Assembly: GCA_038087875.1 (NCBI GenBank)
Contig: CM075994.1
Coordinates: 5,768,001-5,832,000, forward strand
Source of the DNA: Malacoraja senta
Lineage: Eukaryota
DNA length: 64,000 nucleotides
Direction: 5' to 3'
The notes beneath the pieces are model-generated. The model ran no database searches. It saw only the letters and a program-made list of their open reading frames with translations, and was not told the DNA's origin. The position numbers and the translations under genes are program-made. Of this stretch, positions 7,111 to 62,380 are shown piece after piece (the stretch's first letter is position 1; every line of letters begins with the position of its first letter).

Positions 7111-7150
<40 letters not shown>
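7109..7150. repeat. (TA)n microsatellite at the L1 3' junction
   Basis: Read directly. Confidence 0.95.
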
Positions 7151-7154
<4 letters not shown>

Positions 7155-7529: not shown

Positions 7530-7830
7530 AAAGCTGTGTTGCCTTTGGTTGTTAAAGTGCTAAAGCAAGCTGCGTTGCCTTTGGTTTTGAAAGTGCTAAA
7601 ACAAGCTGTGTTGCCTTTGGTTTTGAAAGTGCTAAAGCAAGCAGCCTTGCCTTTGGTTTTTAAAGTGCTAAAGCAAGCTGCCTTGCCCTTGGTTTTCAAA
7701 GTGCTAAAGCAAGCTGCATTGCCTTTGGTTTTGAAAGTGCTGAGGAAAGCTGCCTTGCCTTTGGCTTTGAAAGTGCTAAAGCAAGCTGCATTGCCTTTAG
7801 TTTTGAAAGTGCTAAAACAAACGACCTTGC
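7530..7830 (+). repeat. 36-bp minisatellite TTGCCTTTGGTTTTGAAAGTGCTAAAGCAAGCTGCC (second array ~8325-8527)
   Basis: Gives the 12-aa VLKQAALPLVLK periodic ORFs; related to the 31-bp unit of copy 1. Confidence 0.93.
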
Positions 7831-9982: not shown

Positions 9983-10182
9983 NNNNNNNNNNNNNNNNNN
10001 NNNNNNNNNNNNNNNNNNNNNNNNNNNNNNNNNNNNNNNNNNNNNNNNNNNNNNNNNNNNNNNNNNNNNNNNNNNNNNNNNNNNNNNNNNNNNNNNNNNN
10101 NNNNNNNNNNNNNNNNNNNNNNNNNNNNNNNNNNNNNNNNNNNNNNNNNNNNNNNNNNNNNNNNNNNNNNNNNNNNNNNNNN
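9983..10182. other. Assembly gap (200 N)
   Basis: Run of n; the round length suggests a placeholder. Confidence 0.99.
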
Positions 10183-13149
10183 ACAATGTTAGACAAGTAC
10201 ATGGATAGGACAGGGTTGAAGGGATATGGGCCCAAACGCGGGTAGGTGGGATCGTAGAAGATACACCTTTTGCACCTTATCATACGGGTCTTCGTTCTTC
10301 GTTCTTCCTGTATTACGGCGAGCGTAACCGCACACTACGATGTCGTTTGATCGAAATTAAGGCCTTACTTTTTGTTATGCAGAATGTGAGACCAACAAAG
10401 CACAAGATTCTTAACTTTTGGTAAGAACGCAAATAACGGCAGCTGTAGTTCACAACCAATTCACGTTGCATTCAACATCATTTTCAATGGATCTGAATGA
10501 ATGTTCAAGGAAATTACAAAGTGTAAAATAAGTCTGACACAAAATGCTTGAGTAACTCCAGCATGTTTTGTCTATCTTCGGGTTTAACCAGTATCTGCAG
10601 TCGCTTCCTACACACCTGTCGTCTAAGATCCTCATGACATGGCAACTCAAAGATATTGGGCTTTCCGGGACTTATCCCAAATGGTTTCTGAGGACATAAA
10701 ATATATTCGCTTGCTTGAAATAGTACAGTGAGAAGAAATATTTTGGTTTTAACTCAAATCACCCCAGGTAAAATATACAGAGAACTAAAAGGACACGATT
10801 GATGAATCAGTAGGTACGACGCAATTGGATAATAAATGCTCATCCTGTCGCTGCCTTGCCAGTATGGCCGTCTATGGAAGCAGCGGGAGTCGACGGAGAC
10901 CGGTGCACAAATAGACTAATGGGTATTGAGTTTTCACTTGCCTGTCACATACATTCCCAATGCTAACCCCACGACGATCACATGTCGCCTACAGAGTGTT
11001 GATGACACCCAAAGTAAATGTAAGGAACAACGCCCATTTCTCGCCAGTGGGCGTCAGCAAATGCAGCAATAGGCAACCCTCCTTCCCTGTTTTTAACTGA
11101 AATGGCCTGTTTCGCTGTGAAGTTAGTCATCTGAAATATTAATTCGGTTTTTACTTTCCCCTGAAACATTACTTTCAAAGCTTCTCCTTTTGCCTTTTCT
11201 TTCCTGAGCTCTTATGAGCAATTCACACTTTTATGACGAACCTTTACTGATGTTATCACCAGCTACACCCATTAATGGAGACTGGTCCGTAAATAATGGG
11301 ATAACAGTTTGTTCTATCATTTCCACACCACCCATTCTTCAACGTAAAACTAAATTGCTTCTGAATTTGAACTTGCGATGAAGGAGATTCATGCTAATGC
11401 GATCTGAAGCGTTATTTCTGTTTGATTGTCAGAGATGCTGAATGTTGAATGTTCCCACGTTGTCTGTTTTAATCCGATTTTCCAGCATTTGAAGTTCCGT
11501 TTTGACTCTCAACTCGCACTTCATCCCAGAATTAATAGTACTGGGCAATATAACGGATAAACCATAGGTGTAAGAAATATTTTAAGATATGTTACCATAT
11601 TCTATTTTCAGAACTGGCCGCATGTAAAGATGACCTCAAAGCATCAGGTAATCATAACTTTACAATATTTACAATGTGAATGTATTCAAATCATGAATCT
11701 GACGGCATATTCATATTTACTCCTAGCGTTTAAACATTCGAGCGTAAAATGTCAGAATTTCATTCAGTGTTGTGCATATTTACATTGTTTTATTTCGAGC
11801 ATAGAGCCGTGAAACACTGGTTCCGTTGGGAGCATCATGCCTAGTTAAACCAATCTACTCTCAGTGCACGTTGATCAATATCCCTCGATTCCCTGTGTAT
11901 CCATGTACCTCTCTAAAAGATTTGTAAGCGTACTATCGCATTCTGCCTCCAACACACTTGGCCAGCACATTCCAGCACCCGCCACTCTCCGTTTAATAAC
12001 CGTGTCTCAACCACTTCGTGCCGATAGTGCAAGAAGCGAAAATGGAAACGGGGGGGTTGTTTGGTCATATACACGCGTGATAGAAATTGTTACAGGAAAA
12101 TGAGTGGTCGTTGGATTGCTTTTGACCTATCAATGAGTCGTTGGGCTGAAATGTGAATTCATGTGAAATATGAAGCAATGTTGTTTATTGATTTAACACA
12201 TGGCAGCATTGTCAAGGTGTTAATATTTCAGACAATGGATTTTGCACAGAAGGTGAAAATCCACCATGCCTGCTCCGAGAAGGAGGTATAAAATACTTAT
12301 AATTCCTGTCAATCTATTCAGTAAGACCGCCAGCAGCAAGTGAACTGCAAGCTCATCTGCATGACCCAGATTTTGCTGAAAGACCAATGTTTATCGTCAA
12401 AATCAGGAAAAATGATTAGTCGAGGCGCTAGAAAATGGGCTTCATGTACTTTTTAAACAATGGAAATGTTGAAAAATATGAATAATATCAGAGGTGGAGT
12501 AAAGGCTTTCCAGTTGGAGCAAACGCACCATTTGACGTATATTTCGACATGCCTATTGAAAGGGAAACGTAACTTAAAGTACCTTTACCACCCTCCTTAA
12601 AAATGCAAAAGGAAGTGTAGCGCGACATTTTAATTTATTATTCGTATTCTATGTCTGAACAGAAACATCCCTCAGGGAAAATGAATCCGGTAAGTTGAGA
12701 CTGAGGAAGGGTTACGACCTGCGATATCGCTTGTCCATTCCTTCCACAGACGCGCAGACAGTGCCTTGCCCACTGAATTCTCCAGCGATTTGCGTTTTCA
12801 TTAAATCATGTAGAATATGTGTTTAAGGTAATCACGCTATCAACATAATTCTTTATTTGCCATTTTTTAATTCAGTTGTCTTACAGGGCAACAGGTTATC
12901 ATCATAATGCAATCACTTGTGGGGCAAACAGTTCTGAGGAAAGATATAGCTGAACGGATAATCAAAGATATATGCTAACACTGAAATATTTAGATATCAA
13001 TCGTTGCTCCTGCTACATTTGCTGATTTGATATGAATGCGACTCTGGCATGTCCATTTCCCACACAACGTTCCAAATCAAATACTATTCGTCCTCGTTTT
13101 CCACAGCATTCCCTCCATTCCCTTTGACAAAGCAGGCTTGCCCTTAAGT

Positions 13150-15407: not shown

Positions 15408-15749
15408 TTAAGTTCACAATTTGATTTTATAGGGGCAGGGCATGGCCGGTAGAACGATAAGGAGGGGTGGATCATTGTTCCGTGCGCATCAGTCTCATTT
15501 GGAAGCCCCCCACGTTTTCAGACGCAGATGAGAACTCACAGCTGCTTCCTGGCACTGTATTTGCTGTAAGTGCGATCCTACGTGAGATCGAACAATCCTC
15601 CATTGTCGGGGATTCCCTCTAGGACCGTAACGTCGGGAGATCGTCCCTGTGCTGGTCCATTTAAATGCACAGGCAGCTTGTCAGTTACAACACTGATTTT
15701 TGCTGTTGTTTTTAAATCCGAATAGGCCAGAATAGGTTGGTTGCCAAAC

Positions 15750-16206
15750 ACTTTAATTCCCCTTCCCATTCTCACATTGACCTTTCTATCCTAGGCCTCC
15801 ATTGTCAGAGTGAGGCTAAACGCAAATTGAAGGAAGTCCACCGCATATTTCGCTTAGGCAGCTTACAACCCAGAGATATGAATATTGATTTATCTAACCT
15901 CAGGTAACCCCTGCATTTCATCTCTCTCCACCACCCTACCAAAGTTGCCCCGCTCTCCCGTCGCACCAGCTTTTCATTCTCAGCTAGCAAACAGCTAACA
16001 ATGGCCTTTCCTTTATCATGGTTACTTTTTTTGCATATCTTTCATTTATTTGTTCGAAATATCTCTACATCCCCGTCAATATCTGTCGTTTCCCTTTCCC
16101 CCGACTCTCAGTCTGAAGAAGGATCTCGACCCGAAACGTCACTCATTCCGTCTCACCAGAGATACTGCCTGTCCCGTTGAGGTGCTGCAGCATTTTGTGC
16201 CTATCT
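15750..16206 (+). mobile_element. Penelope-like element 3' fragment (end of GIY-YIG plus terminal repeat)
   Basis: HFNSPSHS..DLSILG and IFRLGSLQP..MNI match the end of the 43629-45716 ORF; followed by the ctgaagaagg..cccgaaacgtc repeat. Confidence 0.85.
16113..16140 (+). ncRNA. Minimal type-I hammerhead ribozyme motif
   Basis: AGU-CUGAAGA-A-GGAUCUCGACCC-GAAAC-GUC-ACU: intact core, GUC triplet, 3-bp stem I, one mismatch in stem II. Confidence 0.65.
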
Positions 16207-18011
16207 TAGGCTTGAACTATTATATTTGAACTTTTACTGTTGTGCTTTTTGACAATATGTCGCCGCAGAATTTTTAACGACATGAAGCTGGATTATGATG
16301 TAATACAAGGAGGTACCGATCCTTTTAAGCGCATGTAGAACCCCGGTGAGAACTTGAACAATAATTTCTTACAAGACTGATTTTATTACAGAAATCAGAT
16401 ACCTCAAACGTTTAGGTGTGTAAGAAAATAATTTAATGCCATTTAATAAAATATACTATGTAGCGCAACGAACGTAATTATAAAAAAAGATATTAAAGGA
16501 AAACATCTCTGAACAACGTTGTTTCATGTTATGAACTAAGTTCGTACAAAATGTTTAGCGTTCCCTGTGCTGTTATTCCTTATTTAATGACGTGTTGGGT
16601 TTTTTAAGACATCAAAAAATGAACTATTATTCTGTTGTGATATCTGACACGATATTTTACTTGTAAAGTTCGAAATTGTGGTTAATTTGCTGGTTGTGGT
16701 GCATGTCGTGGTATCGCGGTAAGTGTCCCGTTAATAAGCAACGGTGCAAATTCCCCCTGAGAAAATAAAATGATCGATTGATTCGGCTCAATGCACAAAA
16801 TCATATGGGGCTTCAACACTTTTGATACTTGATGGCTTTAACAATCCAGACATCGCTACCAAACTAAGCATGTCTGAGCCAGGGGTGATTTAAATTGAAG
16901 CCCCGTGGTGCGTGATAAAACGATATTAGATACGAATTAAACATAATGATGGGAAGGCATTGCATATCGAAGTTGGGGAGATTAATGCTTTGCAGCAGCA
17001 CTAAACCAATTGTCCTGCAGTGTTGTCTAGAGGTATTGCCGCCAGAGTATTTGCCAGATTCCGAAAATAAATCTTCGGAATCCATGCATCTTCTCAAAAG
17101 CCATGGCTGCGTGGATGTTAAAAGAGTGAATAGTTCGTGAAGTTGGCAGCGTACACATCCAGATCAACTCGTTCGCGAGAACTCCGTGGTAGAAGTACAT
17201 TGGAAGAGAGATAAGGATTACTACATTTTGGATACTAGACTTTCAATATCCAGACTACATGTTACATGGAAGGCGATTATGCAACAGCTTTGAAGCATAT
17301 GGATATAAATTCACTCTCCTTCGCTTTTATATTTTGTCCTGGATATAGAAAATAACTAAATTTATATGTGGTTAGCCTTCTCTCCCACGTCATCTATACC
17401 AAGGCTATAGGACTGTCTATCTTTCACTCGAAAGAAGATCCCTGCAGAATTGAGTTTCATCCGTGGGCAGTTGAGGGAAAGACAGGTAAAAGTGCTCTCA
17501 GGGAATTTCGCATCATCCTCATTGGAGACAATTGATCTACCTTTAATCAGACTTGATCGGAATCCAATGTTATATCTTTGCACATATGTTGTTCCCTTTC
17601 TCCTTTATCTGCTTGATTTGTATTCATGTCTAGTCTTTTACTTTACAGTGAAGCACACAAATAATATTTTTCACTGTACTTTGGCAGACGGACAATAACA
17701 CACCAGACTAATCTAATCAACCGAAACATGCGGTGCTCAAAAGGATAGTAATATAGAGGACCAGTTCAGAAAAATAGATCGACAATGTGTATATATCTTC
17801 TGCAAATCACTGAGACATTGGTCTGAAGCCATCTTTCAGTGTTATACGAACACAAAGGGAAAATGTTGCCTCCGTATTCTCAAAATATACTTTATTCGCA
17901 CAAAGTGCTGGAGTAATTCGGAGGGTCAGGTGGCATCTGTGGAGAATTTGAGGTGCTACCTAACCTCTAATTTGCTCCATCATTATGTTTCCTTTTTGTA
18001 ACCCAGCATCT

Positions 18012-18470: not shown

Positions 18471-18540
18471 ACTTCCTTGTTTCTCTATGGTTTGGTTGAA
18501 ATAACGAATTGCGAAAACTGGTTTAACCCAAAGATCAACT

Positions 18541-18717
18541 CAAAGTGCTGGAGTAACTCAACGGTCAGGCAGAATCTCCGGAGAAATAGATTGGTTGGTG
18601 TTTCGGATCTGGGCTATTCTTCGGGGTCTTCTATGAAGAAGGGCTCCGACCCGAAACGTCACCCATTCATTTTCTCCAGAGATGCTGCTTGACTCGCCGA
18701 TTAATTCCAACACTTTG
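18541..18717. repeat. Fold-back (palindromic) element made of two inverted Penelope terminal-repeat arms
   Basis: Arm 18541-18622 (CAAAGTGCTGGAGTAA...TTCTTC) is an imperfect reverse complement of 18635-18717 (GAAGAA...TTCCAACACTTTG). Confidence 0.8.
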
Positions 18718-19318
18718 TGTCTAAATATTATTTGCTCTTTGTTGAAGAATTTCGTTAATGTCCACATGACTGATGACTGCCTATTTTCAATCGAATGGAC
18801 AGCATTATGGACATGATAGACAAAAATAGCTGTATTCTGTTATGCATCAGGAAATTTTGAGTACACAAGAGTTTTTCCATTTACCTCTCGATATTTGGCT
18901 GGCTGTAAGGTAACATATCCTACGTAACTTAACGATCCATTTCAATTAATAATCGTCATACACTCTTGATGGACAATACTTATCGTGGCAGATACTGGCT
19001 CCAGATAATAATTTCATTTACAAGACTGTCCTGTTTCATCATTTTTTGGTCTCCAGCTTAGTAAATTCAAATACATATGCAACAAACGATACGCTATTGA
19101 TGTATTTACATTCTTGCAACGCGTGATCTCCTATATATCCAACTGCACGAAGTTATTAAAGTATGCAATTTCGTTTTAAGACGCTGGCAAACTGAAGGTT
19201 AAAGTAGACGAATTAGGTGAGAAGGAAACAATATTTTCAAGCCATTCCGAAATTGCAATAACCTGTTGCTATTCACTTGCATTAACCGTGACAAAAAGAG
19301 ATAAGAGCCACCCATAGA

Positions 19319-22900: not shown

Positions 22901-23828
22901 GTATATACACATGAGACCATGCCTGTTGCTCGTCAAAATATACACAGATATGAAGACTTGAGACAATGGCCTTACTTGAAAGATGTTAAAATATCTAAAA
23001 TAAATTCTGGTTTTCACCTACTTATCGGAACGAATGCTTTGAAGGGATTGGAATCTATACAGATTGTGAGGAGCCAAGGTGACGGACCGTTTGCTGAAAA
23101 AACCCTATTAGGGGTTATCTATGGCTCCTTGAGAAGGAACAACGAAAGCGGGAACCGGAAGAACTACCCTGCCGCTGCTGTTAATTAAATATCTCCTGGT
23201 AAATTAGAAAAGCTGTTGATGATGCAATACAATCATGAATTCCATGAAAGTACCAATAAGGAATTCTGAAGAAATTTCCAGAGATGAGTTAAAGTTCTTG
23301 GATATTATGAACTACTCAGTAAAGATGATTGGCGGACATTATTGTCTGGATTTACCTTTCATACAAGAAAGTGTTAGTCTGCAGAATAATCGTCGTATGG
23401 CAGAGCAACGCACCCAGAATTTGAAACGCAAGTTCGGCAAGAATACGACATATTAAGAGGAATATACGTCCTTCCTACAGAATATGATTGATAATGAGTA
23501 TGCCGAAATGGTACCAACAAACCTACTAAATCGAAGTGATGGAGTGCTTTGGTACATTCCGCACCATGGGGTGTGTCACTCGAAGAAAGGGTGGTCATTG
23601 ACCGTGTTTCATCAAGTTAAAGGAACAATACTTAACTGTCAACTACTGCAAGGTCCAGACCTTACCAACTCACTCATTGGAGTTCTCATTAAATTCAGAC
23701 AAAAACCAATTGCTTTGATAGCTAATATCAGAGCGATGTTTCATCAAGTCAAAGTATCAGAAACACATATTGACTACCTGCAATTCTTATGGTGGCCTGA
23801 AGGGGATGTACAACAAGATCTTGTTGAA

Positions 23829-24262
23829 GGTACACAAAAATGCTGGAGAAATTCAGCGGGTGCAGCAGCATCTATGGAGCGAAGGAAATAGGCAACGTTT
23901 CGGGCCGAAACTCTTCTTCAGACTGATGGGGGGTGGGGAGAAGAAAGGAAAAAGGCGGAGGAGGAGCCCCAGGGCTGAGGAATGGGACGAGACAGCCCGA
24001 GGGCTGAGGAAGGGGAGGAGACAGCAAGGGCAGGAGACAGCAAGGGCTAACAGAATTGGGAGAATACAATGTTCATGCCCCCAGGATGCAGACTCCCTAA
24101 GCGGAATATAAGGTGCTGTTCCTCCAATTTCCGGTGTTGCTCGCTCTGGCCATGGAGGATACCCAGGACAGAGAGGTCGGATACGGAATGGGAGGGGGAG
24201 TTGAAGTGCTGAGCCACCGGGAGGTCAGGTTGGTTACCAGCATCTGCAGTTCCATCTTAAAC
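23829..24262 (-). mobile_element. Penelope-like 3' fragment nested in BEL RT, partly inverted
   Basis: 23829-24236 is the reverse complement of the 45560-45950 region; 24237-24262 is the extreme tail in + orientation; 16-bp direct repeat ACAAGATCTTGTTGAA at 23813-23828 and 24263-24278. Confidence 0.9.
23894..23921 (-). ncRNA. Minimal hammerhead ribozyme motif
   Basis: Minus strand CUGAAGA-A-GAGUUUCGGCCC-GAAAC-GUU; one stem II mismatch. Confidence 0.55.
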
Positions 24263-24622
24263 ACAAGATCTTGTTGAATACTGGATCAATGTCATCACCA
24301 AGTTGTGCGAACTTTGATTTAAAGAAGAACGCAGATGACAATATAGTTCACTTTCCAGAGGAAGTAATAACCACTTTGAAGAGTAATTTCTATGTGGATG
24401 ATTGCTTAAAATCCATGTCTACTGAGCAAGAAGCAATTCAAATGGTAAAACATGTGATTTCCCTCTGCAATAAGGGAGGATTCACGGTTTCCAAGTAGAT
24501 CAGCAACAAACGTGTTGTATTGGAAAGCATTCCACCAGATGATAGAGCCAAGGAGATCAGATAGTTAGATTTGGACAAAGATAATTTGCCAATGGAAAGA
24601 GCATTGGGGGCTACTAATGTTT

Positions 24623-27409: not shown

Positions 27410-29935
27410 ACATGTATTGTATATGACTGCGCGAAGTATAAGAAGTAAAGTAGATGAGCTTGAGGCTCAATCTGAACGTGCAGATTACTGAGACGTGGCT
27501 GCAGGAGGAACGGGCCAGGGAACTTAATATTCAGGGTTATACATCCTATAGAAAGGACAGGCAGGTAGGCAGAGGAGAGGGAGTAGCTCTGCTGTTGAGG
27601 GATGGAATTCATTCCCTTGCGAGGGAAGACATAGGGACTGACGAGGTAGAGTCACTGTGGATTGAGTTGAGGAATTGTAAAGGCAAGACGACACTAATTG
27701 GTTTTATCTACAGATCCTCAAATAGTAGCCCGATGTAGGGTGTAAGTTGCAGCAGGAGTTAAAACTAGCATGTAACAAAGGTAATGGTGATGGGGGATTT
27801 CAATATGCAGGTAGACTGGGAAAACCAGGTTGGTTCAGGACCCCAAGAAAGAGAGTGTGTAGAGTGCCTCGGAGATGGATTCTTAGAGCAGCTTGTAATG
27901 GAGCCGACCAGAGAAAAGGCAATTTTGGATTTAGTGTTGTCCAATGAACCGGATATGATAAGAGAACTCGAGGTAAAGGAACCGCTTCGAGGTAGTGATC
28001 ATAATATGATTAGTGTTAATCTGCAATTTGAGAAGCAGAAAGGTAGATCGGAAGTGTCAGTGATGCAGTTGAACAAAGGGGACTATGAAGGCATGAGAGA
28101 GCAGCTGGCCAATGTACACTGGAAAGGGATCCTAACAGGAATGACGGTGGAACAGCAAAGGCACGTATTTCTGGGCATAATCCGGAAGACGCAAGATTAT
28201 TTCATTCCAAAAAGGAAGAAAAATTCTAAGGGGAGTAGGAAGCAACCGTGGCTGACAAGAGAAGTTAATGGTAGATTAAAACTAAAAGAAAAGATGTATA
28301 ACACAGCAAAGAGTAGCCAGAAGCCAAAGGATTTCGGAAACATTCATAGGACAACAGAAGGAAACAAAACACGCAGTACGGGGTGAAAAGATGAAGCACG
28401 AAGGGAAACTGGCCAGGAATATAAAGAAGGACAGCAAAAGCTTCCTTAGATATGTTAAGGGGAAAAGAGTAGCAAAGTCAAATGTGGGTCCCTTGAAGGC
28501 AGACACGGGTGAAATTATTATGGGGAACAAGGAAATGTCAGAAGAGTTGAACAGGTATTTCGGATCTGTCTTCAATAAGGAAGACACAAACAATCTCCCA
28601 GAAGTACTGGAGGACAGAGGATCTAAGGGGGTAGAGGATCTGAAATACATTTTTATTCGGCGATAAATAGTATTGGGTAGGCTAATGGGGCTGAAGGATT
28701 ATAAATACCCTGCGCCTGATGGTCTACAACCCAGGGCCCTCAGGGAGGTGGCTCTAGAAATAGTGGACGCATTAGTGATCATTTTCCAATGTTCAATAGA
28801 TTCAGGATCAGTTCCTGTGGATTGGAGGAGAACTAATTTTATCCCACTTTTCAAGAAAGGAGCGAGAGAGAAAACGGGGAATTACAGACCAGTTAGCGTG
28901 ACTTCGCTGGTGGGAAAGATGCTGGAGTCAATTATTAAAGAGGTAATAATGGGGCATTTGGATAGTAGTAAAAGGATTAATCCAAGTCAACATGGATTTA
29001 TGAAAGGGAAATCATGCTTGACTAATCTTCTGGTATTTTCTGAGGATGTGACAAGTTAAATGGATGAATGGGTGCCAGTGGATGTAGTGTATCTAGATTT
29101 TCAGAAGCCTTTGATAAGGTCCCGCACGAGAGACTGGTGACTAAAATTAGAGCGCATGGTATTGGGAGTAGGGTGTTGACATGGATAGAAAATTGGTTGG
29201 CAGACAGGAAGCAAAGAGTAGGAGTGAACGGGTCCTTTTCAAAATGGCAGGCAGTGGCGAGTGGAGTGCCACAAGGCTCGGTGTTCGGGTCGCAACTATT
29301 TACCATATATATTAATGATTTGGAAGAGGGAATTAGGAGCAACACTGGCAAGTTTGCGGATGACACAAAACTGGGTGGCAGTGTGAACTGTGAAGAGGAT
29401 GTTAAGTGGTTGCAGGGTGACCTGGACAGGTTGAGTGAGTGGGCAGATACGTGGCAGATGCAGCATAATATAGATAAATGTGAGGTTATCCACTTTGGCG
29501 GCAAAAACAAGGGGGCAGATTATTATCTCAATGAGGTGAGGTTAGGTAATGGGGAGGTGCAGCGAGACCTGGGCGCCCTTGTACACCAGTCACTTAAAGT
29601 TGGCGTGCAGATACAGCAGGCAGTTAAGAAAGCTAAGGGAATATTGGCCTTCATAACAAGATTATATCAGTATAGGATTAAAGAGGTTCTCCTGCAGTTG
29701 TACAGGGCTCTGGTTAGACCACATCTGGAGTATTGTGTTCAGTTTTGGTCTCCTAATTTGAGGAAGGACATCCTTGTGATTGAGGCAGTGCAGCGTAGGT
29801 TCACGAGATTGATCCCTGGGATGGCGGGACTGTCATATGAGGAAAGGTTGAAAAGACTAAGCTTGTATTCACTGGAGTTTAGAATGATGAGGCGGATCTT
29901 ATAGAAACATGTAAAGTTATAAAAGGACTGGACAA
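27410..29935 (+). pseudogene. CR1 ORF2 (APE endonuclease + RT), fragmented
   Basis: ITETWL, MGDFN, ILDLVL, SDHN, NYRPVS, QHGF..KSCLTNL, AFDKVPH, SGVPQGSV, KFADDTKL across several frames. Confidence 0.93.
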
Positions 29936-31318: not shown

Positions 31319-31554
31319 AATTATCGGACTGCTCCCCTGCACATATGCGCTTGCGCCATGAAGACATCCACCACAAGAAGGACGGGAAGAATAAGCCTCG
31401 TCAAGAAAGCAGCTACGCCAACCTTTGCGTGATGGTGAAATATTCGCCTAAAATAATTTGCTGAATGATGTTTGACCATGTTCACTGCCCAGCCGAATGT
31501 GTACTGCTATTTCCGCTTCCGTACTTGTTGTTTGCGACCGATACTATCGTGAAA

Positions 31555-31695
31555 TTCAAGGTCAGAAGAAGGGTCACGCGCCAAAACGACACCCATTCCT
31601 TATCTCCAGGAATGCTGCCTGTCCCGCCGAGGCACTCTGGTATTTTATGCCTTTCTTCGGTTTAAATCGGCATTTGCAGTTCCTTCCGGCACAAA
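31555..31695 (+). repeat. Penelope terminal-repeat fragment, hammerhead core degenerate
   Basis: CAGAAGAAGGGTCACGCGCCAAAACGACACC...GGCATTTGCAGTTCC. Confidence 0.7.
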
Positions 31696-31924
31696 ATCCA
31701 AGAACTGTTAAGGTACACCTGTTTCTTCGGCCCAGTTGGAGAAGTTTACTCCGTCCAATCACAGGCTCACAACTTCAGAGACCCGATTGTATCCTTCCCT
31801 TGGCTACCACCTGTTTTAAGTATCTAGTGCCCCACCGTGGAACTTGCTTTCCTCCACTGCATCGATTCCCGCACACATTCCGATAAGCATTGGATGGTAG
31901 AATAATTGGCTGCAGTAATGTAGC

Positions 31925-36054: not shown

Positions 36055-36270
36055 CAAGTTGCCTATCGATTACCCCTCACCTGTATACAACTAATACTTG
36101 CCAGGCTTTCTCCTTCCCTCCCCTCTTTCCGTTTTCTCTACCCCCCACCACATACAATCTGATTGAAGAAGGATGTCGATCCGAAACATTACCTATCCAT
36201 GTTCTCCAGAGACACTGCCTGACCCGCTGAGTTACAGTATTCCAGCACTTTATGCTTCAGTTTCTTGTTT
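36055..36270 (+). repeat. Penelope terminal-repeat fragment
   Basis: TTGAAGAAGGATGTCGATCCGAAACATTACC..TTCTCCAGAGA..GACCCGCTGAGTTAC..TCCAGCAC. Confidence 0.75.
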
Positions 36271-38586: not shown

Positions 38587-40206
38587 GAAGATGCTCGTGA
38601 TCTCATGGTAGAAGCATATATTTTCATAATAATGTTATCTCTAAGAACAACAGGTTATTTCATGGATACAATTTACTCACCAGCTGTGTCAAACTAGCTG
38701 CATCCTTTGGTACCATAATGGCGTGAGATATGTATCCTATCAGACACCGAGTCCGATTCGGTTGTCTTTGCGAAAGCAAAGCTTATCTTAGTGACCTTCC
38801 AGGTATCCTCGGGATTTACTGGTGCCTTTGAATTAGCATAAGCATTCTTCGAAAACAACTACTTGTTTATCCTAAGCAGGGTTGGAAATGCGGCTGACAA
38901 CTCAATTATAGCTGTCATAGTCTATTTAATCCTTGCATTACAACGGTTCGCTGTAAACATTTGTTGTGAACAAAGTGGACATATATCATTGATTGACCTG
39001 AACAAGTACCCCTTCGTAGATGCAATTTCTTGATCTCCTCTGGTCTTAGTTATAACTTTTAGCAAGGAAACGTTCAACATCTCTATATTAATCACGTGTA
39101 ATCGAATAAAGTACATCTCCAAACTCCGCGTGTTGCGTTACCTGTAATATGTGTATATTCAGAGTATTGGTTTATTATTCGGATGTCGTTTTCTGGGCAA
39201 GAACATGAATATGTTATCGTTGGAAGGATTTATTCCAAGTGTCTGCTGAAGCTTTCTTACTGTAAATGAGCACAGCAGTATGCAGATTCTTTCATCATTA
39301 TAAACAATACAACACTGTCAGGCATTATCGTCCATCTCAGTTACTGTTCATTTTTCTTGGTTTGGATTAACTATCATACTTTGTATTGAATCACAATTTC
39401 ACAATCTGCTCATGTTTTCTAAAATGTCTATTATATTTTTATTGAAAACGCACAATGCCGTCAATTTCAGAACATGGTTGGATGCTAAGCCGTTGGGATC
39501 AATCGGTGGGGGAAACCATATTTCTGGCTGAGCCACAATCTTACACGCTACTTCATATATCTACCGATTTCCTGAATAAATCAACATATTATTGGAAGAT
39601 AATTCCGCAAAGTATAATCATAGTAGGAATAGTCAATATATCATGATCAATTGCTTCAAGTTTTCGAGCACATTTAACGCAATGCAAAGTCGACAGTGTT
39701 TTAAGGAATTGTCTCAACAATTCATAAGCAGATAATGCTGCAGACGTCTACATATTTGTTTAAAGATGTATGCATGCATATAGGGACATATATATAGGGA
39801 AATGTGGCATCCGTACTCATACGCAATCAGTTGCAAACAATTTCGCTGATATAAATTATACATACACCAATTCAATTACTTGTTTTTTTTCCTCTATTTC
39901 GTTTCTTACATGATAAACCTATTCACTTAGAAGTCACTACCAATGCCCTTGTGTTTTGACATTTGACTTTTTCTCCCCATATACCCATTGAGCAACCTAT
40001 TAAAATGTTGTTCTATTATCATCACTAGCTCTCATATTCATCATGACAACTGGGCATTTCCACTTCCGTTCCATGTTCATTTCCTGTGCAATAGAGTTGT
40101 CGTTAACCCTGTCAGTGGACTGCCATTGTAGACTTGGCAACTGCAATGTTATGACATTACAGAGAAGAACATATGTCATTGTCACGGCTATGCTTATGGT
40201 TACATA

Positions 40207-41331
40207 TTGTCATTAGAAACGGGAATAGTGCGGGAGGATTGGCGTACTGCGCATGTTGTTCCGTTGCTTAAAAAGGGTTCTAAGAGTAAACCTAGCAATT
40301 ATAGACCTGTTAGTTTGACGTCAGTGGTGGGCAAATTAATGGAAAGGATACTTAAAGATAATATATATAAGCATCTGGATAAGCAGGGTCTGATTAGGAA
40401 CAGTCAACATGGATTTGTGCCTGGAAGGTCATGTTTGACTAATCTTCTAGAATTTTTCGAAGAGGTTACTAGGGAAATTGATGAGGGTAAACCAGTGGAT
40501 GTTGTCTATATGGACTTCAGTAAGGCCTTTGACAAGGTTCCTCATGGAAGGTTGGTTAAGAAGATTCAATTCTTGGGTATTAATGGTGGAGTAGCAAGAT
40601 GGATTCAACAGTGGCTGAATGGGAGATGCCAGAGAGTAATGGTGGATGGCTGTTTGTCAGGTTGGAGGCCGGTGACTAGTGGGGTGCCTCACGGGTCTGT
40701 GTTGGGTCCACTGTTGTTTGTCATGTACATCAATGACCTGGATGATGGTGTGGAAAATTGGATTAGTAAGTATGCAGATGATACTAAGATAGGTGGTGTG
40801 GTGGATAATGAAGTAGATTTTCAAAGTCTACAGAGAGATTTAGGCCATTTGGAAGAGTGGGCTGAAAGATGGCAGATGCAGTTTAATGCTGATAAATGTG
40901 AGGTACTACATCTCGGCAGGACAAATCAAAATAGGACGTACATGGGAAATGGTAGAGAATTGAGGAATGCAGTTGAACAGAGGGATCTAGGAATAACTGT
41001 GCATACTTCCCTGAAGGTGGAATCTCATGTAGATAGGGTGGTAAAGAAAGCTTTTGGGGTGCTGGCGTTTATAAATCAGAGCATTGAATATAGAAGTTGG
41101 GATGTAATGTTAAAATTGTACAAGGCATTGGTGAGGCCAATTCTGGAGTATGGAGTACAATTTTGGTCGCCTAATTATAGGAAGGATGTCAACAAAATAG
41201 AGAGAGTACAGAGGAGATTTACTAGAATGTTGCCTGGGTTTCAGCAACTAAGTTACAGAGAAAGGTTGCACGTTAGGTCTTTATTCTTTGGAGCGCAGAA
41301 GGTTAAGAGGGGACTTGATAGAGGTCTTTAA
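40207..41331 (+). pseudogene. CR1 ORF2 RT domain, 374 aa open, frameshift near 41272
   Basis: NYRPVSLTSVVGK, DFSKAFDKVPH, SGVPHGSVLGP, KYADDTK; endonuclease missing through truncation. Confidence 0.95.
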
Positions 41332-41723: not shown

Positions 41724-42067
41724 TTACCAGGTCAGTTTCTTGTCACATGTACCAATTAAGATACAGTGACATTCTATTTACGATACAGCCATACTAAATA
41801 AAGCAACAAGACACACAACTACATAAGTTAACATATACAACCGCCACAGTGCATTTATGGTGATGTTCAAGTTCACATAGTGAGGATTTAGAATCTCAGA
41901 GTGAGACCTTTCGTTCTCTTTCATATCTGTCTTTTTAAAACAGAATTGTGACGTTTTTGCTGCAATATGAAAATGCAATTTTCAATGAAGAAAAAAATAG
42001 AATATTCCAGCATCTGCAGTTCCTTCTCTAACACTTTGTCTACTCCACTGCGAAATCTCGTCAAGGT

Positions 42068-43800
42068 ATGCCTACTTTGAAGAAGTTCTCCTCCTCTCTC
42101 CGGAGACTGTTCCACAACCAACTCTCAAACTGCCCCATCTCTGTGACCCCCCTGCCCTCCAACTCTACGACCACATCCTTACCCAAACTCGATACCATAG
42201 CCACATCTGCTTCCTCTGGGCATGCCTGCGCCTCCATCTCATACCTCATGGCTTCCAGCTCCAGTTCCCTACCTCCCAGTTCGGACCCCAGCCGGACTAT
42301 CGGTACCGACTGGCTATCTACCGGCATACCCAACAATTCTCCACCCGGGCACTGAGATCCACTCTGACTGCGATGCGCCGGCACCAGCAGGACCTCGCAT
42401 TGACCCTCCCGGAACTTCGGGCCTCACTCACCCAGACCTGCAACGGTCCTCAACTATACTTTATCCGCCGGAAGATCCACCTCTTCAATAAAAGATTCCT
42501 GGCCCACCTCAACTCCACCAAGTACCTTAAATTATCCCGCCTCCAGGCCGCTCCCGCCGCCGACTCTCCGCGACTCGACCGCCCGCAGGCTCCGGGCCCC
42601 AACTCCGGCCTACATCGCCTGCCCGAGTCCCGCGACGCCATCTTGTCCACGGGGAGCGCCTCCAGTACTCACCAGGACGCCGCCTACACCGACCTCCACG
42701 TCGATGCTGCCGCCGACCTTCACCTGCCTACCGATGACGCCCAGCCTCGCCGCTTCTAGGGTAACTCGGACTTCCTCCCCCTCGCCGATTCCTCCGAATC
42801 TCGCCGCCCCCCGGGACCTCCCAACATCATCGCCGCACCGGGCCCATCCGACATCGCCGTCGCACTGGGCCTACCGAACATCACAGCCGCACCCGGTCCT
42901 CCTAACATCGCCGCCGGACCGGGCCGATCCAGCATCGCCGCCGGACCGGTCCTACTCTACACGACCGCCGGACCGGGGCTATCCAAACATGGCCGGCGCA
43001 CCGCACCCTATTCACCCCGTCGCCTCACCGGGCTGGGCGAACCGCGCCGCCCCACCGACCATCCGCCTACCGGGACCTCCCAAGCATCGCCCGTAAACCC
43101 CGACTCTACTGCCCACGGACCCCGACCATCGGGTCCGCCGACCCTCGCCACTGCAACGCCCCCCAGCCCCCCCGACTCCACTGCCCGAGGACTCCTACCG
43201 TCGGGTCCGCCGACCCTCGCCATTGCACCTCCCTCCAGCAGCCCGCAGCCGTCGCCTCACCTGCAGACTGGTCTCTGTACTGGGCCTGAAGCCTCCACGC
43301 TGCTCACTCCCACTCTCCTGGGTTTGACCCCACTGGGTCCTAGCGCTAGTCTGCCTAACCCTGGTTACCTCAGTGGCAGTTCCACTGATTCTTCCCCATC
43401 CCTCTCCAACTATGGGACCACTTCTCTTCCACACCCAAACTACAGCCCTCTCACCCCCCACCCCCTGAACACCCACCACCCCCCCCCCCCCACCACACAT
43501 CGCCTCGTCCCCATTCCACCCACCTGCCGTCCTCCGGCCCCAACCCCCATCCCTGCCGGTGTTCACCATCCCCCCCGACCTCCCCCTCTCCGACATCGAA
43601 CGGTCTGTCCTCAGCAGAGGTCTTACCTTTGTCCCCCTCCGTCCCCACCTCAATGAGTTCCGTGCCCTCCATGACTTGGAACGCTTCTACCGTCGCCTCC
43701 GCCTCACAGCTCACTTCCATGGGAAGGAGTCCTCGCTCCCCACTGGTGACCCCTTTTCCCGTCTCCAACGCACCCCCTCCTCATGGAACCCCCCCTCGTA
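42068..43800 (+). pseudogene. Penelope ORF N-terminal part, frameshifted
   Basis: HSHICFL..CLRLHLIPHGFQL motif (~42195-42265), ORF 42373-42759, Pro-rich repeats, and LSDIERSVLSRGLTFVP (43559-43801) shifted at a C-run into the RT frame. Confidence 0.75.
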
Positions 43801-45716
43801 GCCTTCCGGCTTTAGAACTCTTCATTCAAAACTGCCGCCGTGACATCAGCCGCCTCAACTTCTCCACTCCCCTGTCTCACTCCAATCTCTCCCCCCCTGA
43901 ACGCACTGCCATCGACTCACTCCGCAACAACCTAGATTGGGTTATCAAACCCGCCGACAAGGGAGGTGCCGTGGTAGTCTGGCGCGTGGATCTCTATAAA
44001 GCTGAGGCCACGCGCCAACTCTCGGACACCTCCTCCTACTTACCCCTGGACCATGACCCCACTGACGAGCAGCAGGCCATCATCTCCAGCACCATCACCG
44101 ACTTCATCCACTTCCACGCCCTGCCCGACCGAGCCTCCAACCTCATCGTTCCCCAGCCCCGCACAGCCCGCTTTTACCTTCTCCCCAAAATCCACAAACC
44201 TGACTGTCCCGGTAGACCCATTGTCTCTGCCTGTTCGTGCCCCACAGAACTCATCTCCACTTACCTCGACTCCATCCTATCCCCCTTGGTTAAATCCCTC
44301 CCTACGTATGTTCAAGACACCTCAGACACCCTCCGTCGTCTCCGCGCATTCCACTCTCTAGACCCTCACCCCCTCATCTTCACCATGGACGTCCAGTCAT
44401 TGTACACCTCCATCCCCCACCAGGATGGTCTCGAAGCCCTCCGTTTTTTCCTCGACCGTAGAAGCAACCTATACCCGGCCACTGACACCCTCCTCCGCCT
44501 AGCTGAGCTGGTCCTTACACTTAATAACTTTTCATTTGACTCCTCCCATTTCCTCCAAATACAAGGCGTAGCTATGGGCACACGCATGGGCCCCAGCTAC
44601 GCCTGCCTCTTTGTCGGGTACGTAGAACAATCCTTGTTCAATGCGTACCAGGGCCCCATCCCCGACCTCTACCTCCGCTTCATCGATGATTGTTTTGGTA
44701 CCACATCCTGCACCCACACACAACTGACTGACTTCATCCGCTTCACCACCAACTTCCATCCGGCACTCAAATACACCTGGACCATTTCCGACACTTCCCT
44801 ACCATTCCTTGACCTCACTATCGCCATCGAAGGTGATAGACTCCTTACCGACGTCCACTACAAACCAACCGACTCCCATTGCTATCTGGACTACACTTCT
44901 TCCCACCCTGCTTCCTGTAAGGACTCCATCCCCCACTCCCAATTCCTCCGTCTACGCCGCATCTGCTCCCAGGATGAGGCGTTCCACACCAGGGCATCTG
45001 AAATGTCCTCATTCTTCAGGGAACGGGGGTTCCCCTCCTCCACCATAGATGGGGCTCGCACCAGGGTCTCTGCCATACCCCGCAACACTGCTCTCTCTCC
45101 CCATCCCCCCACTCACAACAAGGGCAGAGTCCCCCTAGTCCTCACCTTTCACCCCACCAGCCGCCACATACAACAAGTGATCCTCCGTCAGTTTCGCCAC
45201 CTCCAGCGTGACCCCACCACTCGCCACATCTTCCCATCTCCACCCATGTCTGCCTTCCGCAAAGACCGCTCCCTCCGTAACTCCCTTGTCAATTCTTCCC
45301 TTCCCTCCCATACCACCCCCTCCCCTGGTACTTTCCCTTGCAACCGCAAGAGATGCAACACTTGTCCCTTCACCTCCCCCCTCGACTCCATTCAAGGACC
45401 CAAGCAGTCGTTCCAGGTGCGACAGAGGTTCACCTGCATCTCCTCCAACCTCATCTATTGCATCCGCTGCTCTAGATGCCAGCTGATCTACATCGGTGAG
45501 ACCAAGCGGAGGCTTGGCGATCGTTTCGCTGAACACCTCCGGTCGGTCCGCAATAACCAACTTGACCACCCGGTGGCTCAGCACTTCAACTCCCCCTCCC
45601 ATTCCGTATCTGACCTCTCTGTCCTGGGTCTCCTCCATGGCCACAGCGAGCAACACCGTAAATTGGAGGAAATGCACCTCATATTCCGCTTGGGCAGTCT
45701 ACATCCTGGGGGTTGA
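43629..45716 (+). CDS. Penelope reverse transcriptase + GIY-YIG endonuclease (true homology from ~43797; last codons frameshifted, stop ~45742)
   Basis: IKPADKGGAVVV, FYLLPKIHK..PGRPIVS, MDVQSLYTSI, QGVAMGTRMGP, RFIDD, LPFLDL, NLIYCIRC..C..IYIGET.R.L..RF.EH. Confidence 0.93.
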   Translation: MSPSVPTSMSSVPSMTWNASTVASASQLTSMGRSPRSPLVTPFPVSNAPPPHGTPPRSLPALELFIQNCRRDISRLNFSTPLSHSNLSPPERTAIDSLRNNLDWVIKPADKGGAVVVWRVDLYKAEATRQLSDTSSYLPLDHDPTDEQQAIISSTITDFIHFHALPDRASNLIVPQPRTARFYLLPKIHKPDCPGRPIVSACSCPTELISTYLDSILSPLVKSLPTYVQDTSDTLRRLRAFHSLDPHPLIFTMDVQSLYTSIPHQDGLEALRFFLDRRSNLYPATDTLLRLAELVLTLNNFSFDSSHFLQIQGVAMGTRMGPSYACLFVGYVEQSLFNAYQGPIPDLYLRFIDDCFGTTSCTHTQLTDFIRFTTNFHPALKYTWTISDTSLPFLDLTIAIEGDRLLTDVHYKPTDSHCYLDYTSSHPASCKDSIPHSQFLRLRRICSQDEAFHTRASEMSSFFRERGFPSSTIDGARTRVSAIPRNTALSPHPPTHNKGRVPLVLTFHPTSRHIQQVILRQFRHLQRDPTTRHIFPSPPMSAFRKDRSLRNSLVNSSLPSHTTPSPGTFPCNRKRCNTCPFTSPLDSIQGPKQSFQVRQRFTCISSNLIYCIRCSRCQLIYIGETKRRLGDRFAEHLRSVRNNQLDHPVAQHFNSPSHSVSDLSVLGLLHGHSEQHRKLEEMHLIFRLGSLHPGG

Positions 45717-45859
45717 ACATTGAATTCTCCCAATTCTGCTAGCCCTTGCTGTCCCCTCCCCTTCATCAGCCCTCTGGTTGTCTCCTCCCCTCCCCCAGCC
45801 CTCAGGCTCCTCCTCCGCCTTTTTCCTTTTTTCCTTTCTTCTCCCCACCCCCTATCAGT

Positions 45860-45887
45860 CTGAAGAAGGGTTTCGGCCCGAAACGTT
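45860..45887 (+). ncRNA. Minimal type-I hammerhead ribozyme motif in the Penelope 3' terminal repeat
   Basis: CUGAAGA-A-GGGU(UUCG)GCCC-GAAAC-GUU; self-complementary loopless stem III (AACGUU); stem I weak. Confidence 0.7.
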
Positions 45888-46419
45888 GCCTATTTCCTTC
45901 GCTCCATAGATGCTGCTGCACCCGCTGAGTTTCTCCAGCATTTTTGTGTACCTTCGATTTTCCAGCATCTGCAGTTCCATCTTTAACAGAATATTTCGTG
46001 TGTTTTGCTGCTTTTAAGTCTTTTCGACATATTGAATACTTAATAAATAATCACAAAAGCTTCCCTGTGTGCACTGATTCCAACTGTATTTGTCAGAGCG
46101 TCCATCGTTTTTTTGTCTCGGCGACCTACTTTGTTAGTTACGATTTGGAACTTCGATATCAAATAGATTGCATTTAACGTTGAACTACGTGACATTTCTT
46201 GCAGAAATAGAGAAATTAAAACGTGCCCAGCGAGATGCAGGTGTGCAATAATAAATTCCCATTTTGCATCCACGACTCTTGACAATAGAATATGTTCTCA
46301 CGTTCCTATGATGCATTTGATATTTTCATTAATATTCATATGTCTCGCTTTCACGAAATAGCCATTGGTCTTAACGTTTGAAGTGTTAGTCTAGGTATCT
46401 TAAGGAAAGACTAATGAAA

Positions 46420-49320: not shown

Positions 49321-50881
49321 GAGGGGCCTCTGCCCACACCCCCCCCCCCCACCCACACCCCCACCACACACCCCAGCTCCCCGACACACTCTTCCCCTCA
49401 ATCCCCATTGTCCACTTATTTTGCCATTTATTTGTGGCACCTGGCCATCAAAGGCAGCGTAGGTGGGGAAAGAGTTGAGCAGACTTGGCCGACGCAAAGC
49501 CGCAGGTCCCGATGGTGTCAGCGCTAGGAGAATCAAGGCGTGTGCCAGCCAGTTATGTGGAGCACTCCAGCATAGCTTGAAACTGAGCATGAGCCTGGAG
49601 AGGGCTCCTGTGATTTGGAAGACATGTTGCCTGGTTCCTGTGCCAAATTATATGCGTCCAAGCTCCTCCAATGAGTAGAGACCGGTGGCGCTGACTTCAC
49701 ACATCAGAAATCTATGGAGAGGCTGGTGCTCAGTCACATGCGACCCATGGTTAAACCATACCTGGACCCCCTGCAGTCTGCTTACCAAACAAAGGGGTGG
49801 ATGGAGGACGCCATCATCCATATTCTCCATCGTTCCTATGCTCACCTGGATAAGCCGGGAGGCAATGTGAGAGTCTTTTTTTTTTACTTCTCCCGTGCTT
49901 TTAACACTATCCGTCCTGTACTACTAGGGAGCAAACTGACGAAGAAGCTGGTGGATGCTCCACTAATGTCCTGGATCACCAACTACCCGACTGGACGACC
50001 GCAGCATGTCAGACTAAAGAACTGTCTCGGATATGGTAGTGAGCAACCCAGGGGCCCCTTCCAGTTCACCATCTTCAGAAACAACCCGGACTCCTGCCAC
50101 CAGCAGATATTTTGGGATGACTGCAATTGTCATCAGCCAGTGGAGGGAAGCGAAATACATGGGTGTAGTCAACGACCTTGTTGAGTTGTGTGGGCTAAAT
50201 CACCTGCAGCTCAACACCGACAAGACTAAGGCTTTAGTGCTGGACTTTAGGAGGAGAGGAACCTCCCTGCTTCCTGTCTCCATCAAGAGAGTAGATGTAC
50301 AGTTAACCCAGGAGTACAAATACATTGGAGTTTACCTGGACAGTGAATTAGACTGGTCCAGGAACGCTGAGGCACTGTCCAAGAAGGGACAGAGCCGTGT
50401 GTTCTTTTTCTGGAGACTCCGCTCTTTGAACGTCCGCATTAAGGTTCTGCAGATGTTCTATCAATCGCTGATGACCTGTGCCATCTTCTACACTGTCGTG
50501 TTCTGTGGTAGCAGGGCGAAGGCCGTGGAGGCCAAGAGAATCAACACGCTCATCAGGCAGACTGGTTCGGTACAAGGATTGGAGTTAGATTGATTGGAGG
50601 TGGTTTCGGAAAGGTGGATGCTCCTCAAACTGCGGAGCATCTTAGGCAATACATTCCACCCCCTCCATGACACACTGGTCAATCTGGGGAGCACCTTCAG
50701 CAACACACTGCCCCCACCAATGCGCAGCATAAAACGCCACAGGAAATGCCTTTTCCTTGTGGCTACCAAACTGTACCACTCATCCCCTTCTGCCTTATGG
50801 TAGTCTGAACCCCCGCCCGTCCCCCACCTTTGCACATCCCTCATCCTGGCCTTTTCCACTCAATAATTTAATTTCGTGTTT

Positions 50882-51006
50882 TAGAAGGAACTGCAGATGC
50901 TGGAAAATCGAAGGTAGACAAAAATGCTGGAGAAACTCAGCGGGTGAGGCCGTATATATGGAGCGAAGGAAAGAGGCAACGTTTCGGGTCGAAACCCTTC
51001 TTCAGA
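50882..51006 (-). mobile_element. ~125-bp Penelope terminal-repeat insertion
   Basis: Reverse complement of 45860-45985; flanked by AATTTAATTTC(G/A)TGTTT at 50865-50881 and 51007-51023. Confidence 0.88.
50978..51005 (-). ncRNA. Minimal hammerhead ribozyme core
   Basis: CUGAAGA-A-GGGU(UUCG)ACCC-GAAAC-GUU, perfect stem II; 5' strand of stem I truncated. Confidence 0.6.
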
Positions 51007-51181
51007 AATTTAATTTCATGTTTGTGCAATATTACATATGTGCTATGCAATACCTGGTCACTTTAATGTTATTATTCGTATAATGCACATGACACTTTCA
51101 ATGCCTTATAACTGTATATTTTGATTGGCGGCAGACCAATTTCTCTCCGGGATACATAAAGATGTATTGTATCATGTCCTA

Positions 51182-61400: not shown

Positions 61401-61603
61401 AAATCGGCGAGGGTACGTAAAATTAAAAAGCTGAATGCGTGGCTCAAAGACTGGTGTGGGAAAAATGGGTTTGGTTTCTTGGGCCACTGGCACCAGTACT
61501 GGGACAGGGGGGATCTGTTCTGTAAGGACGGACTTCACCTGAACGGTGCTGGGACTGGGGTCCTGGCAAATCATATAACTAGGGCAGTAGAGAGTGTAGA
61601 GCC

Positions 61604-62380
61604 TTGCTGAGCGCGCCGTCCGCAGTGCCAATGAGCTGCTGGAACATTGCAGACTGTCGCATTCGGATTTTTATCTCGCTCTACTAAATCTCCGAAATAT
61701 TAGTCGCGACCCTGCCATGGGCTCACCGGCTCAACGGCTCATGTCCCGCACCACTCGCCCTCCGATCCCTGTCTCCCAGCGGTCCCTACAGCCCGCAGTC
61801 CGCAGCCCTGCTGCTGTCCGGAAGCGTATTACCCAGAAACAGGTCGTCCAGAAGCGCTCCCACGACAAGTCATGCCGTCCCCTTCAGCCCCTCTTCGAGG
61901 GCCAGGTCGTCCGGATGCAGTCCCCCTCCGGACACCACCGCTTGGCTGTTGTCGTCGGCTTTGCCGACTCTCCGCGCTCTTACCTGGTTGACTACGAGGG
62001 CACAATCTACCGCCGGTCCCGCCAGCACTTGCTGCCGGTCAACGAGCCCGCTCCGCCTCCCGCAGCCCCTTTTGCTCCCCCGGTTGCCGCCTCGTTGCCT
62101 CCCGCTCCTCTGCCCTCGCAACCCTTGGCACCCCGTTCTCCCGCTGCTCCTCCTGGCCCCCCCCCCCCATCAGCCATCTCCCGCTCGCGTGCCCGTTGCG
62201 GTGCCCTTGTCTCCTCCCCGGTCTCCTCGTTCTCCCCCTCCTGCTCACTCCCCTCTCGGTTCACCTATCGCCGCTCCTGCCCCGGTGCCCACTCTACCTT
62301 CGAAGGGGGGGGGAGGCGGGCTGCATACCCGCTTCGGGCGTCTGGTCAAGCCGCCTGAACGTTACGGGGAGTTTGCTTGA
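61604..62380 (+). pseudogene. Gypsy integrase C-terminal fragment
   Basis: AERAVRSA..LL, ALLNLRN..GSPAQRLMSR.TR, PRSYLV..G.IYRRSRQHL, terminal TRFGRLVKPPERY. Confidence 0.88.

Follow-up and report, generated by a model that had tools for sequence, protein, structure and literature searches.

A minimal hammerhead motif at the edge of a Penelope-like terminal repeat in Malacoraja senta, and its probably inert copies

Introduction

Minimal type-I hammerhead motifs (min-HHRs) were described in 2014 in the terminal repeats (pLTRs) of metazoan Penelope-like elements (PLEs), mostly as single copies derived from truncated elements (Cervera & De la Peña 2014, PMC4209133). In the portions of that paper drawn on here, min-HHR monomers were inactive and dimers were weakly active, 2-bp helices found by hand, as in D. 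virilis, were accepted into the class, and an AG stands a few bases ahead of the core in several rows of Fig S3; neither Table S1 nor Fig S3 includes a cartilaginous fish.

The second system close to the present one is PAc, which is found in the green anole and belongs to Poseidon (Frangieh et al. 2024, PMC11167929), and whose RT starts at two sites bounding the tail. According to the portions of that study cited here, hammerhead mutants had no effect on insertion, uncut RNA was the main substrate, the hammerhead cleaved only with protein, and no RNA-seq ends were seen at the cut site. Among vertebrate PLEs, only Neptune and Poseidon have been reported (bioRxiv 10.64898/2026.07.22.740005, in part). 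Neptune is defined by a CX2-5CX2C linker, which also occurs in Nematis, and the role of the PLE hammerhead in cells is called "still unclear" in the same source (PMC8557442, in part). It has also been noted that pLTRs can carry palindromes at their 5′ ends and occur as solo copies, and an initiator-like site has been described (PMC3846280, in part).

The window analysed here is a 64,000-nt stretch of Malacoraja senta (GCA_038087875.1, contig CM075994.1, positions 5,768,001 to 5,832,000), and all coordinates are positions within it. It contains a 28-nt motif that is probably a minimal type-I hammerhead in the pLTR of a broken Neptune-type PLE, the copies in the window being probably inert passengers rather than working ribozymes. 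This kind of ribozyme is already known, and the motif is an ordinary member of the class described in 2014.

The carrier element

The motif lies in the 3′ pLTR of an insertion with the following parts:

42007–45988, + strand: unit-length Penelope-like insertion (tail copy, body, 3′ pLTR, tail)
42130–43774, + strand: N-terminal part of the same ancestral ORF as the next feature, in pieces, located by tblastn of relatives
43389–45716, + strand: RT and C-terminal GIY-YIG open frame, 775 codons, with a DKG motif; homology to relatives from 43764
45339–45365, + strand: CX4CX2C linker between RT and EN, of Neptune/Nematis type
45858–45956, + strand: pLTR of about 99 bp, its limits taken from the solo copies; the hammerhead sits at the 5′ edge
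45957–45988, + strand: optional 32-bp tail, with a direct copy at 42002–42033

This insertion of about 4 kb is broken and is flanked by an 8-bp target duplication at 41999–42006 and 45988–45995; among 5,000 random flank pairs, 3 gave matches of at least 8 bp. The insertion contains only one hammerhead because the 5′ pLTR is absent. The frame 43389–45716 gave RVT_1 (E 1.5e-5) and GIY-YIG (E 4.6e-4) matches, both below the Pfam cut-off. The N-terminal part contains a stop at 42757–42759, a frame change near 43770 and Pro/Ala-rich 27-bp repeats at 42813–43029. Since relatives align collinearly over 42130–45713 across three frames, the pieces represent one ancestral ORF, broken by the stop and the frame change. 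The RT and GIY-YIG frame ends 144 nt upstream of the hammerhead C3, and the layout matches the published consensus, so that the earlier note, written from the letters of this stretch, was right to name a Penelope terminal repeat as the carrier.

A protein search scored 8,000 candidates and returned 1,190 relatives. The CX2-5CX2C pattern is present in 116 of the 120 relatives listed, among which the closest named ones are from Mobula (72% identity), Chiloscyllium (69%, also 65% and 64%), Rhincodon (68%) and Hypanus (65%), whereas the invertebrate matches listed stand at about 50%. These identities make a shark or ray the likely host. Assigned by this linker, the carrier appears to be a Neptune-type EN+ PLE. 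As in Neptune (PMC8557442, in part), RT is followed by the Cys linker and then by GIY-YIG at the C-terminal end, together with partial tandems, inverted pLTRs and a tail at one end, although this linker is common to Nematis as well. The window shows the features of EN+ PLEs, namely a pLTR, an optional tail, inverted pLTR pairs and target duplications. PAc resembles the present element in being a vertebrate PLE with a hammerhead and an optional 30–40-bp tail between two RT start sites, but it belongs to the Poseidon clade and lacks the Cys linker (PMC11167929, in part).

Several further features were observed in the window. A repeat cluster at 2399–9110, with units up to 300 bp and a 31-bp tandem array at about 2686–3243, is interrupted by an RT frame at 4766–6160 (RVT_1, E 1.4e-17). 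The frame 40132–41331 has an RVT_1 match (E 3e-35), 29068–29904 resembles a related RT by eye, and 61600–62358 was counted among the mobile-element frames and has no Pfam match. An assembly gap of 200 N lies at 9983–10182, and no host gene was identified in the window.

The motif and its copies

The 28-nt motif is present exactly as the earlier note had written it:

45860–45887, + strand: best motif copy, laid out as in PMC4209133 Fig S3/S7 (in part)
45857–45859, + strand: helix I 5′ strand, of which only 45858–45859 pair, with 45888–45889
45860–45866, + strand: first core box, followed by an extra A at 45867
45868–45879, + strand: helix II, 4 bp with a 4-nt loop
45880–45886, + strand: second core box and loopless palindrome
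45887, + strand: H17 = U, with the predicted cut between 45887 and 45888

The pattern CUGANGA, 13 free bases and GAAANNU matches exactly at 16113(+), 23895–23921(−), 45860(+) and 50979–51005(−), i.e., four times in the window against 0.06 expected by chance, and none of 100 shuffles reached four matches. The earlier claim of an intact core at these four places is thereby borne out. When up to 3 mismatches were allowed, the family pattern gave 7 matches (0.11 expected). In total, nine homologous copies can be aligned over about 100 bp, four with an exact core and five decayed. Three of the nine are tied to RT/EN sequence. Besides the best copy and two solo copies discussed below, they are:

15749–16216, + strand: older sister-subfamily copy with an EN remnant; motif 16113–16140, helix I 3 bp, A-C mismatch in helix II
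23826–24269, − strand: 5′-truncated copy, EN end and pLTR; motif 23894–23921, A-C mismatch in helix II
36110–36254, + strand: decayed copy with upstream homology; motif 36163–36190, C3>U, palindrome broken
12701–12728, + strand: most degenerate motif copy, second core box lost
18521–18723, both strands: head-to-head pair of decayed pLTRs; motifs 18633–18660(+) and 18597–18624(−), centre near 18629

By alignment, the sites at 18633, 36163, 31563 and 12701, which had been called altered or degenerate, are decayed homologues. The eight copies named in the earlier note are thus real, but a ninth, 18597–18624(−), lying head-to-head with 18633, had been overlooked.

Helix II is fully paired in four of the nine copies (45860, 51005, 36163 and 12701, the last with a G-U closing pair), and an A-C mismatch lies inside it in two of the four intact-core copies (16113 and 23921), so that an exact core and a full helix II occur together only at 45860 and 51005. 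Its G-C closing pair (G10.1-C11.1) is kept in 7/9. The three stem II sequences quoted in the earlier note (45860, 50978 and 36171) are correct, but the double-changed one, at 36171, sits in a copy whose core (C3>U) and palindrome are broken. Stem III had been described as a loopless palindrome; the 4-nt palindrome, with no loop 3, is kept in six of the nine copies. Helix I measures 2, 2, 1, 3, 1, 0, 0, 3 and 0 bp in the nine copies. The 2–3 bp given previously for stem I holds at 45860 and 23921 (2 bp each) and at 16113 (3 bp), but not at 50978, where a single pair forms and the helix I 5′ strand is host DNA.

In most respects, this motif is laid out as a min-HHR, with the type-I order, CUGANGA plus an extra base, G10.1-C11.1, no loop 3 and a palindromic 15.2-16.2, and it shares with that class the pLTR position after the ORF, the many single truncated copies and the opposite-strand pairs. 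Its 4-bp helix II is at the short end of the min-HHR range of 3–7 bp, whereas the 2-bp helix I of the window's young subfamily is below the 3-bp minimum of the descriptor (PMC4209133, in part, for each of these comparisons). A 2-bp helix I is also found in the D. virilis Penelope variant, in which, by contrast, helix II is longer and helix III carries an insertion of 2 nt (PMC4209133, in part).

Non-LTR retrozymes are likewise non-autonomous, hammerhead-bearing and pLTR-derived (PMC7229834 and bioRxiv 10.64898/2026.07.22.740005, each in part), and families with a mean unit of 363 bp were reported in the one chondrichthyan sampled (the latter source). However, an origin of the motif from such a tandem, circular-RNA-forming array, or as a chance pattern in a repeat, is extremely unlikely. 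Retrozymes are tandem arrays with mostly canonical hammerheads, whereas the window copies are dispersed monomers with target duplications and lack the 6-bp helix I of canonical motifs; in addition, the linkage to RT/EN sequence in three of nine copies and the chance expectation of 0.06 speak against both variants. With only dispersed copies and no tandem complete hammerheads, the retrozyme reading is largely refuted for the window.

Descriptors, folding and covariation

When the published descriptor, which allows a helix I of 3–7 bp and an intact helix II (PMC4209133, in part), was re-coded, none of the nine window copies passed, and the copy at 45860 passed only with helix I relaxed to 2 bp. 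Since hand-found 2-bp cases were accepted in the original work, this failure lowers the probability of min-HHR membership without removing it. An Rfam search gave no match at E ≤ 1 over the window; over 45780–46000 at E ≤ 10, 8 weak matches were returned, none of a hammerhead family, and thus the Rfam check proposed in the earlier note gave no hammerhead in the window or around the motif.

Covariation was compared with shuffles. The share of helix cells that pair is 68.3% in the nine window copies and 67.2% in shuffles; on five covariation measures, between 217 and 359 of the 500 shuffles scored as high. Therefore, the stem II differences, which had been noted for staying paired in three copies, are not evidence of selection within these copies. 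Lower divergence of the core (9/99) relative to the downstream pLTR (105/550) was set aside as a sign of conservation because the copies had been found by their core.

In folding predictions with 73 nt of context, the stem II probability does not exceed 0.01 in any of the four copies with an intact core, and the second core box is taken up into a competing hairpin. Under the same folding, motifs from outside the window reach 0.65–1.0 in 6 of 14 cases and 0.3 or less in the other 8. In-silico dimers were rejected as a criterion: the active arrangement lies far above the dimer MFE for 18 of 18 motifs, and the comparison does not discriminate because all score alike, outside motifs with good helices included. 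The element was also searched for an upstream segment capable of extending helix I, but the duplexes obtained were all weak and mismatched, the best at −11.1 kcal/mol.

The motif was also sought elsewhere. When metagenomes were scanned without constraining stem II, 30 loci were obtained, none of which extends into the pLTR of the window family beyond about 30 nt. The three inner stem II pairs hold in 24/27 cases among 11 loci that belong to two related sets of records (9 distinct stems) and in 11/42 in the other 19 loci (14 distinct stems), a difference (Fisher p 3e-7) between groups that were chosen after the sequences were seen. One locus, L014 (positions 18–45 of a 1,201-bp contig of a bacterial MAG), has a complete minimal hammerhead with helix I of 5 bp and helix II of 4 bp; this contig may be eukaryotic DNA in a bacterial bin. 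Three pattern matches were found in prokaryote genomes, none of the window's family, and the 13 in viral contigs were taken as chance (inner stem II pairs 6/24 over 8 distinct stems).

An alignment of 16 motifs was assembled from four of the nine window copies, 10 of the 11 loci (the near-identical L043 omitted), and L027 and L028, which were added because they pair; the search pattern had fixed G10.1, C11.1 and two helix I bases. In these chosen motifs, helix II cells pair in 93.8%, and 20 double-changed cells were counted against 7.3 in shuffles (0/500 as high), whereas the number of pairs with a double change was not above shuffles (201/500 as high). In L028, an independent locus, this 28-nt layout recurs about 125 nt downstream of a PLE endonuclease homologue (E 2.6e-14); L028 is the only one of the 12 outside motifs tied to a PLE endonuclease gene within 400-bp flanks. 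The covariation in this alignment supports the hammerhead class rather than the window family itself.

The 5′ boundary of solo copies

The 5′ boundary of the repeat was fixed base by base in two solo copies of the window:

50876–51006, − strand: 131-bp solo pLTR with tail; its start lies 1 nt ahead of C3 (51005), and it is flanked by an 11-bp target duplication (51007–51017 and 50865–50875)
31561–31693, + strand: old solo pLTR with tail, core decayed; its start lies 2 nt ahead of C3 (31563), and the flanking 9-bp target duplication (31552–31560 and 31694–31702) has 1 mismatch

Of the remaining copies, four extend upstream, two make up the head-to-head pair, whose centre is 4 nt ahead of the core, and the seventh is unclear. 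Such head-to-head pLTR pairs, at window 18538–18720 and at L021, L026 and L029, have their centres 4, 8, 17 and 18 nt before the core. Fragments of the pLTR without a hammerhead were seen at 17899–17946(−) and 10548–10592, and the block 45905–45941, downstream of the hammerhead, is kept in all nine copies and could be a protein-binding or promoter element. The truncated copy 23826–24269(−) has an inverted tail at 24234–24269 and a 16-bp target duplication that is partly shared with the element ends; in the insertion 23826–24278, the inverted tail stands alone at the 5′ end and a tail-less pLTR at the 3′ end, a layout that, by analogy with PMC11167929 (in part), would fit priming of both DNA strands at two RT start sites.

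Reads were placed on 45640–46040 from four runs; X21 gave 2 reads and X22 gave 0, and the read sets X1 and X24 represent other individuals or species. The family is very abundant, as the earlier note had supposed: X1 gave at least 95,498 contigs, and about 6% of run X24 yielded 8,552 reads of poly(A) RNA. From 45853 to 45872, depth increases 5.5-fold (X1) and 15.7-fold (X24). Before 45858 (at least 161 contigs in X1; 397 reads in X24) and 45859 (at least 88 contigs), there are loose ends whose AT-rich flanks are unrelated; those at 45854 (at least 151 contigs; 546 reads) belong to full copies in which the C/T tract differs, and they account for part of the depth step. At the 3′ side, read ends at 45952, 45953 and 45988 mark the two ends of the tail. 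At the predicted cut 45887/8, X1 and X24 show neither a comparable rise in depth nor piled-up molecule ends, although a library of fragmented poly(A) RNA is a weak test of cleavage. AT-rich targets and the lack of RNA ends at the cut site are shared with PAc (PMC11167929, in part). The 482 reads clipped at 45894 carry an intact sister-subfamily hammerhead upstream. The X24 RNA reads are split about evenly between the two orientations, in line with read-through or with a library that is unstranded.

Among the 40 variants listed, out of 69, three fall within the motif, and all three are neutral to the structure: loop U>C at 45872 (27% and 31% in the two read sets), U-G>U-A at 45876 (30% and 37%) and H17 U>C at 45887 (6% and 37%).

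An RNA end made by cleavage would give solos that begin at the equivalent of 45888 and lack the core, whereas the solos seen keep it. Since they start 1–2 nt before C3 and not 28 nt downstream at the cut, their template RNA was likely uncut, as was observed in vitro for the anole element. Because they begin only 1–2 nt before the core, they also lack the helix I 5′ strand, one of the hammerhead's three helices. In PAc, by comparison, the pLTR reaches well upstream of the hammerhead, with templates from −145 and the ORF start in stem II (PMC11167929, in part).

Signals before the core

The site at 45857–45859, where the solo copies have their 5′ boundary, is one that we take, from consensus motifs, to be both initiator-like and splice-acceptor-like. 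The initiator-like 7-mer at A45857 is weak evidence by itself because one match occurs about every 90 bases. A transcription start at A45857 would nevertheless account for both the solo boundary and the 3-bp ceiling on helix I.

A long pyrimidine tract with the acceptor-like site occupies 45815–45859 and ends 1 nt before C3. In D. virilis Penelope, an intron likewise stops on the 5′ side of helix I (PMC4209133, in part). By analogy with that intron end, a conserved intron–hammerhead junction in PLEs is possible. A splice acceptor ending at 45858 is the rival reading of the 5′ boundary, but among the X24 rows listed, there is no supported RNA joint, the loose ends disagree (agreement 0.33), and no common upstream exon is seen. 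A sigma-70 promoter scan was set aside as irrelevant to an animal genome.

Discussion

The failed descriptor, the absence of an Rfam match, the lack of covariation among the window copies and the unfavourable folding fit a motif that is inert here and also one that is no longer a ribozyme in this lineage. The latter would be a hammerhead relic with another job, e.g., an internal promoter element or a protein-binding site, which does not cut even in the complete element. We regard this as unlikely. In its favour, helix I is at most 3 bp in all nine copies, covariation is missing within the family, competing folds are predicted, the motif begins 3 nt after the initiator-like site, and Naiad elements have spread without canonical hammerheads (PMC8557442, in part). 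However, the core is kept at all its positions, as are the extra base, G10.1-C11.1 and the palindrome, and pairing survives in the common read variants listed; related motifs outside the window also have a helix I of 2–3 bp, together with a covarying helix II, and the anole motif cuts with protein present (PMC11167929, in part).

The opposite proposal, that the dispersed copies are working ribozymes that cut host transcripts, alone or in trans, is very unlikely. Four copies have an exact core, the repeat is abundant in poly(A) RNA, and a 2-bp helix I has been published for D. virilis, where an extended motif cleaved at a low level; however, the published monomer did not cleave (both PMC4209133, in part). 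In the window, helix I is 0–3 bp, helix II is mismatched in half of the intact-core copies, the fold is disfavoured, and no pile of RNA ends marks the cut site in the library, itself a weak test. Intact cores that share a strand are separated by 27 kb and 30 kb, with no closer dimer partner. Given this spacing and the low predicted stem II probability, cutting of host RNA by copies in this window would be unlikely. The suggestion in the earlier note that the repeat could act on any transcript crossing the locus is thus not upheld, since no copy passes the descriptor, the solos lack the helix I 5′ strand and no intact same-strand partner lies within 27 kb.

We return to the reading of a PLE hammerhead whose scattered copies are probably inert because many start 1–2 nt before the core, without one of the three helices. 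From published work on other elements, a complete pLTR-ORF-pLTR transcript would bring together two motifs, which would pair via the 4-nt palindrome and cut after position 17, probably aided by the element's protein. The element's RT would start inside the RNA at either tail end and copy toward the RNA 5′ end. On a tandem transcript, it would run on into the body, whereas on an uncut RNA starting at the pLTR, about 3 nt before the core, it would run off after about 130 nt and leave a solo copy. Such solo copies of about 130 bp would keep the whole core and lose the helix I 5′ strand.

No paper on the hammerhead of the window family, or on solo 5′ ends at the core, was found in the open literature searched. 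Per the literature searched, the family adds a new host lineage, the cartilaginous fishes, to the PLE hammerhead class. The sharp 5′ boundary of the solo copies before the core gives genomic support to the in vitro result that uncut RNA is the template. If, in addition, this RNA begins at A45857, which is possible but less likely than not, helix I of the 5′ hammerhead would be capped at 3 bp, genomic fossils would show a template end that was not made by cutting, and a huge elasmobranch repeat family would provide a natural map of the sites at which Penelope transcription and RT begin.
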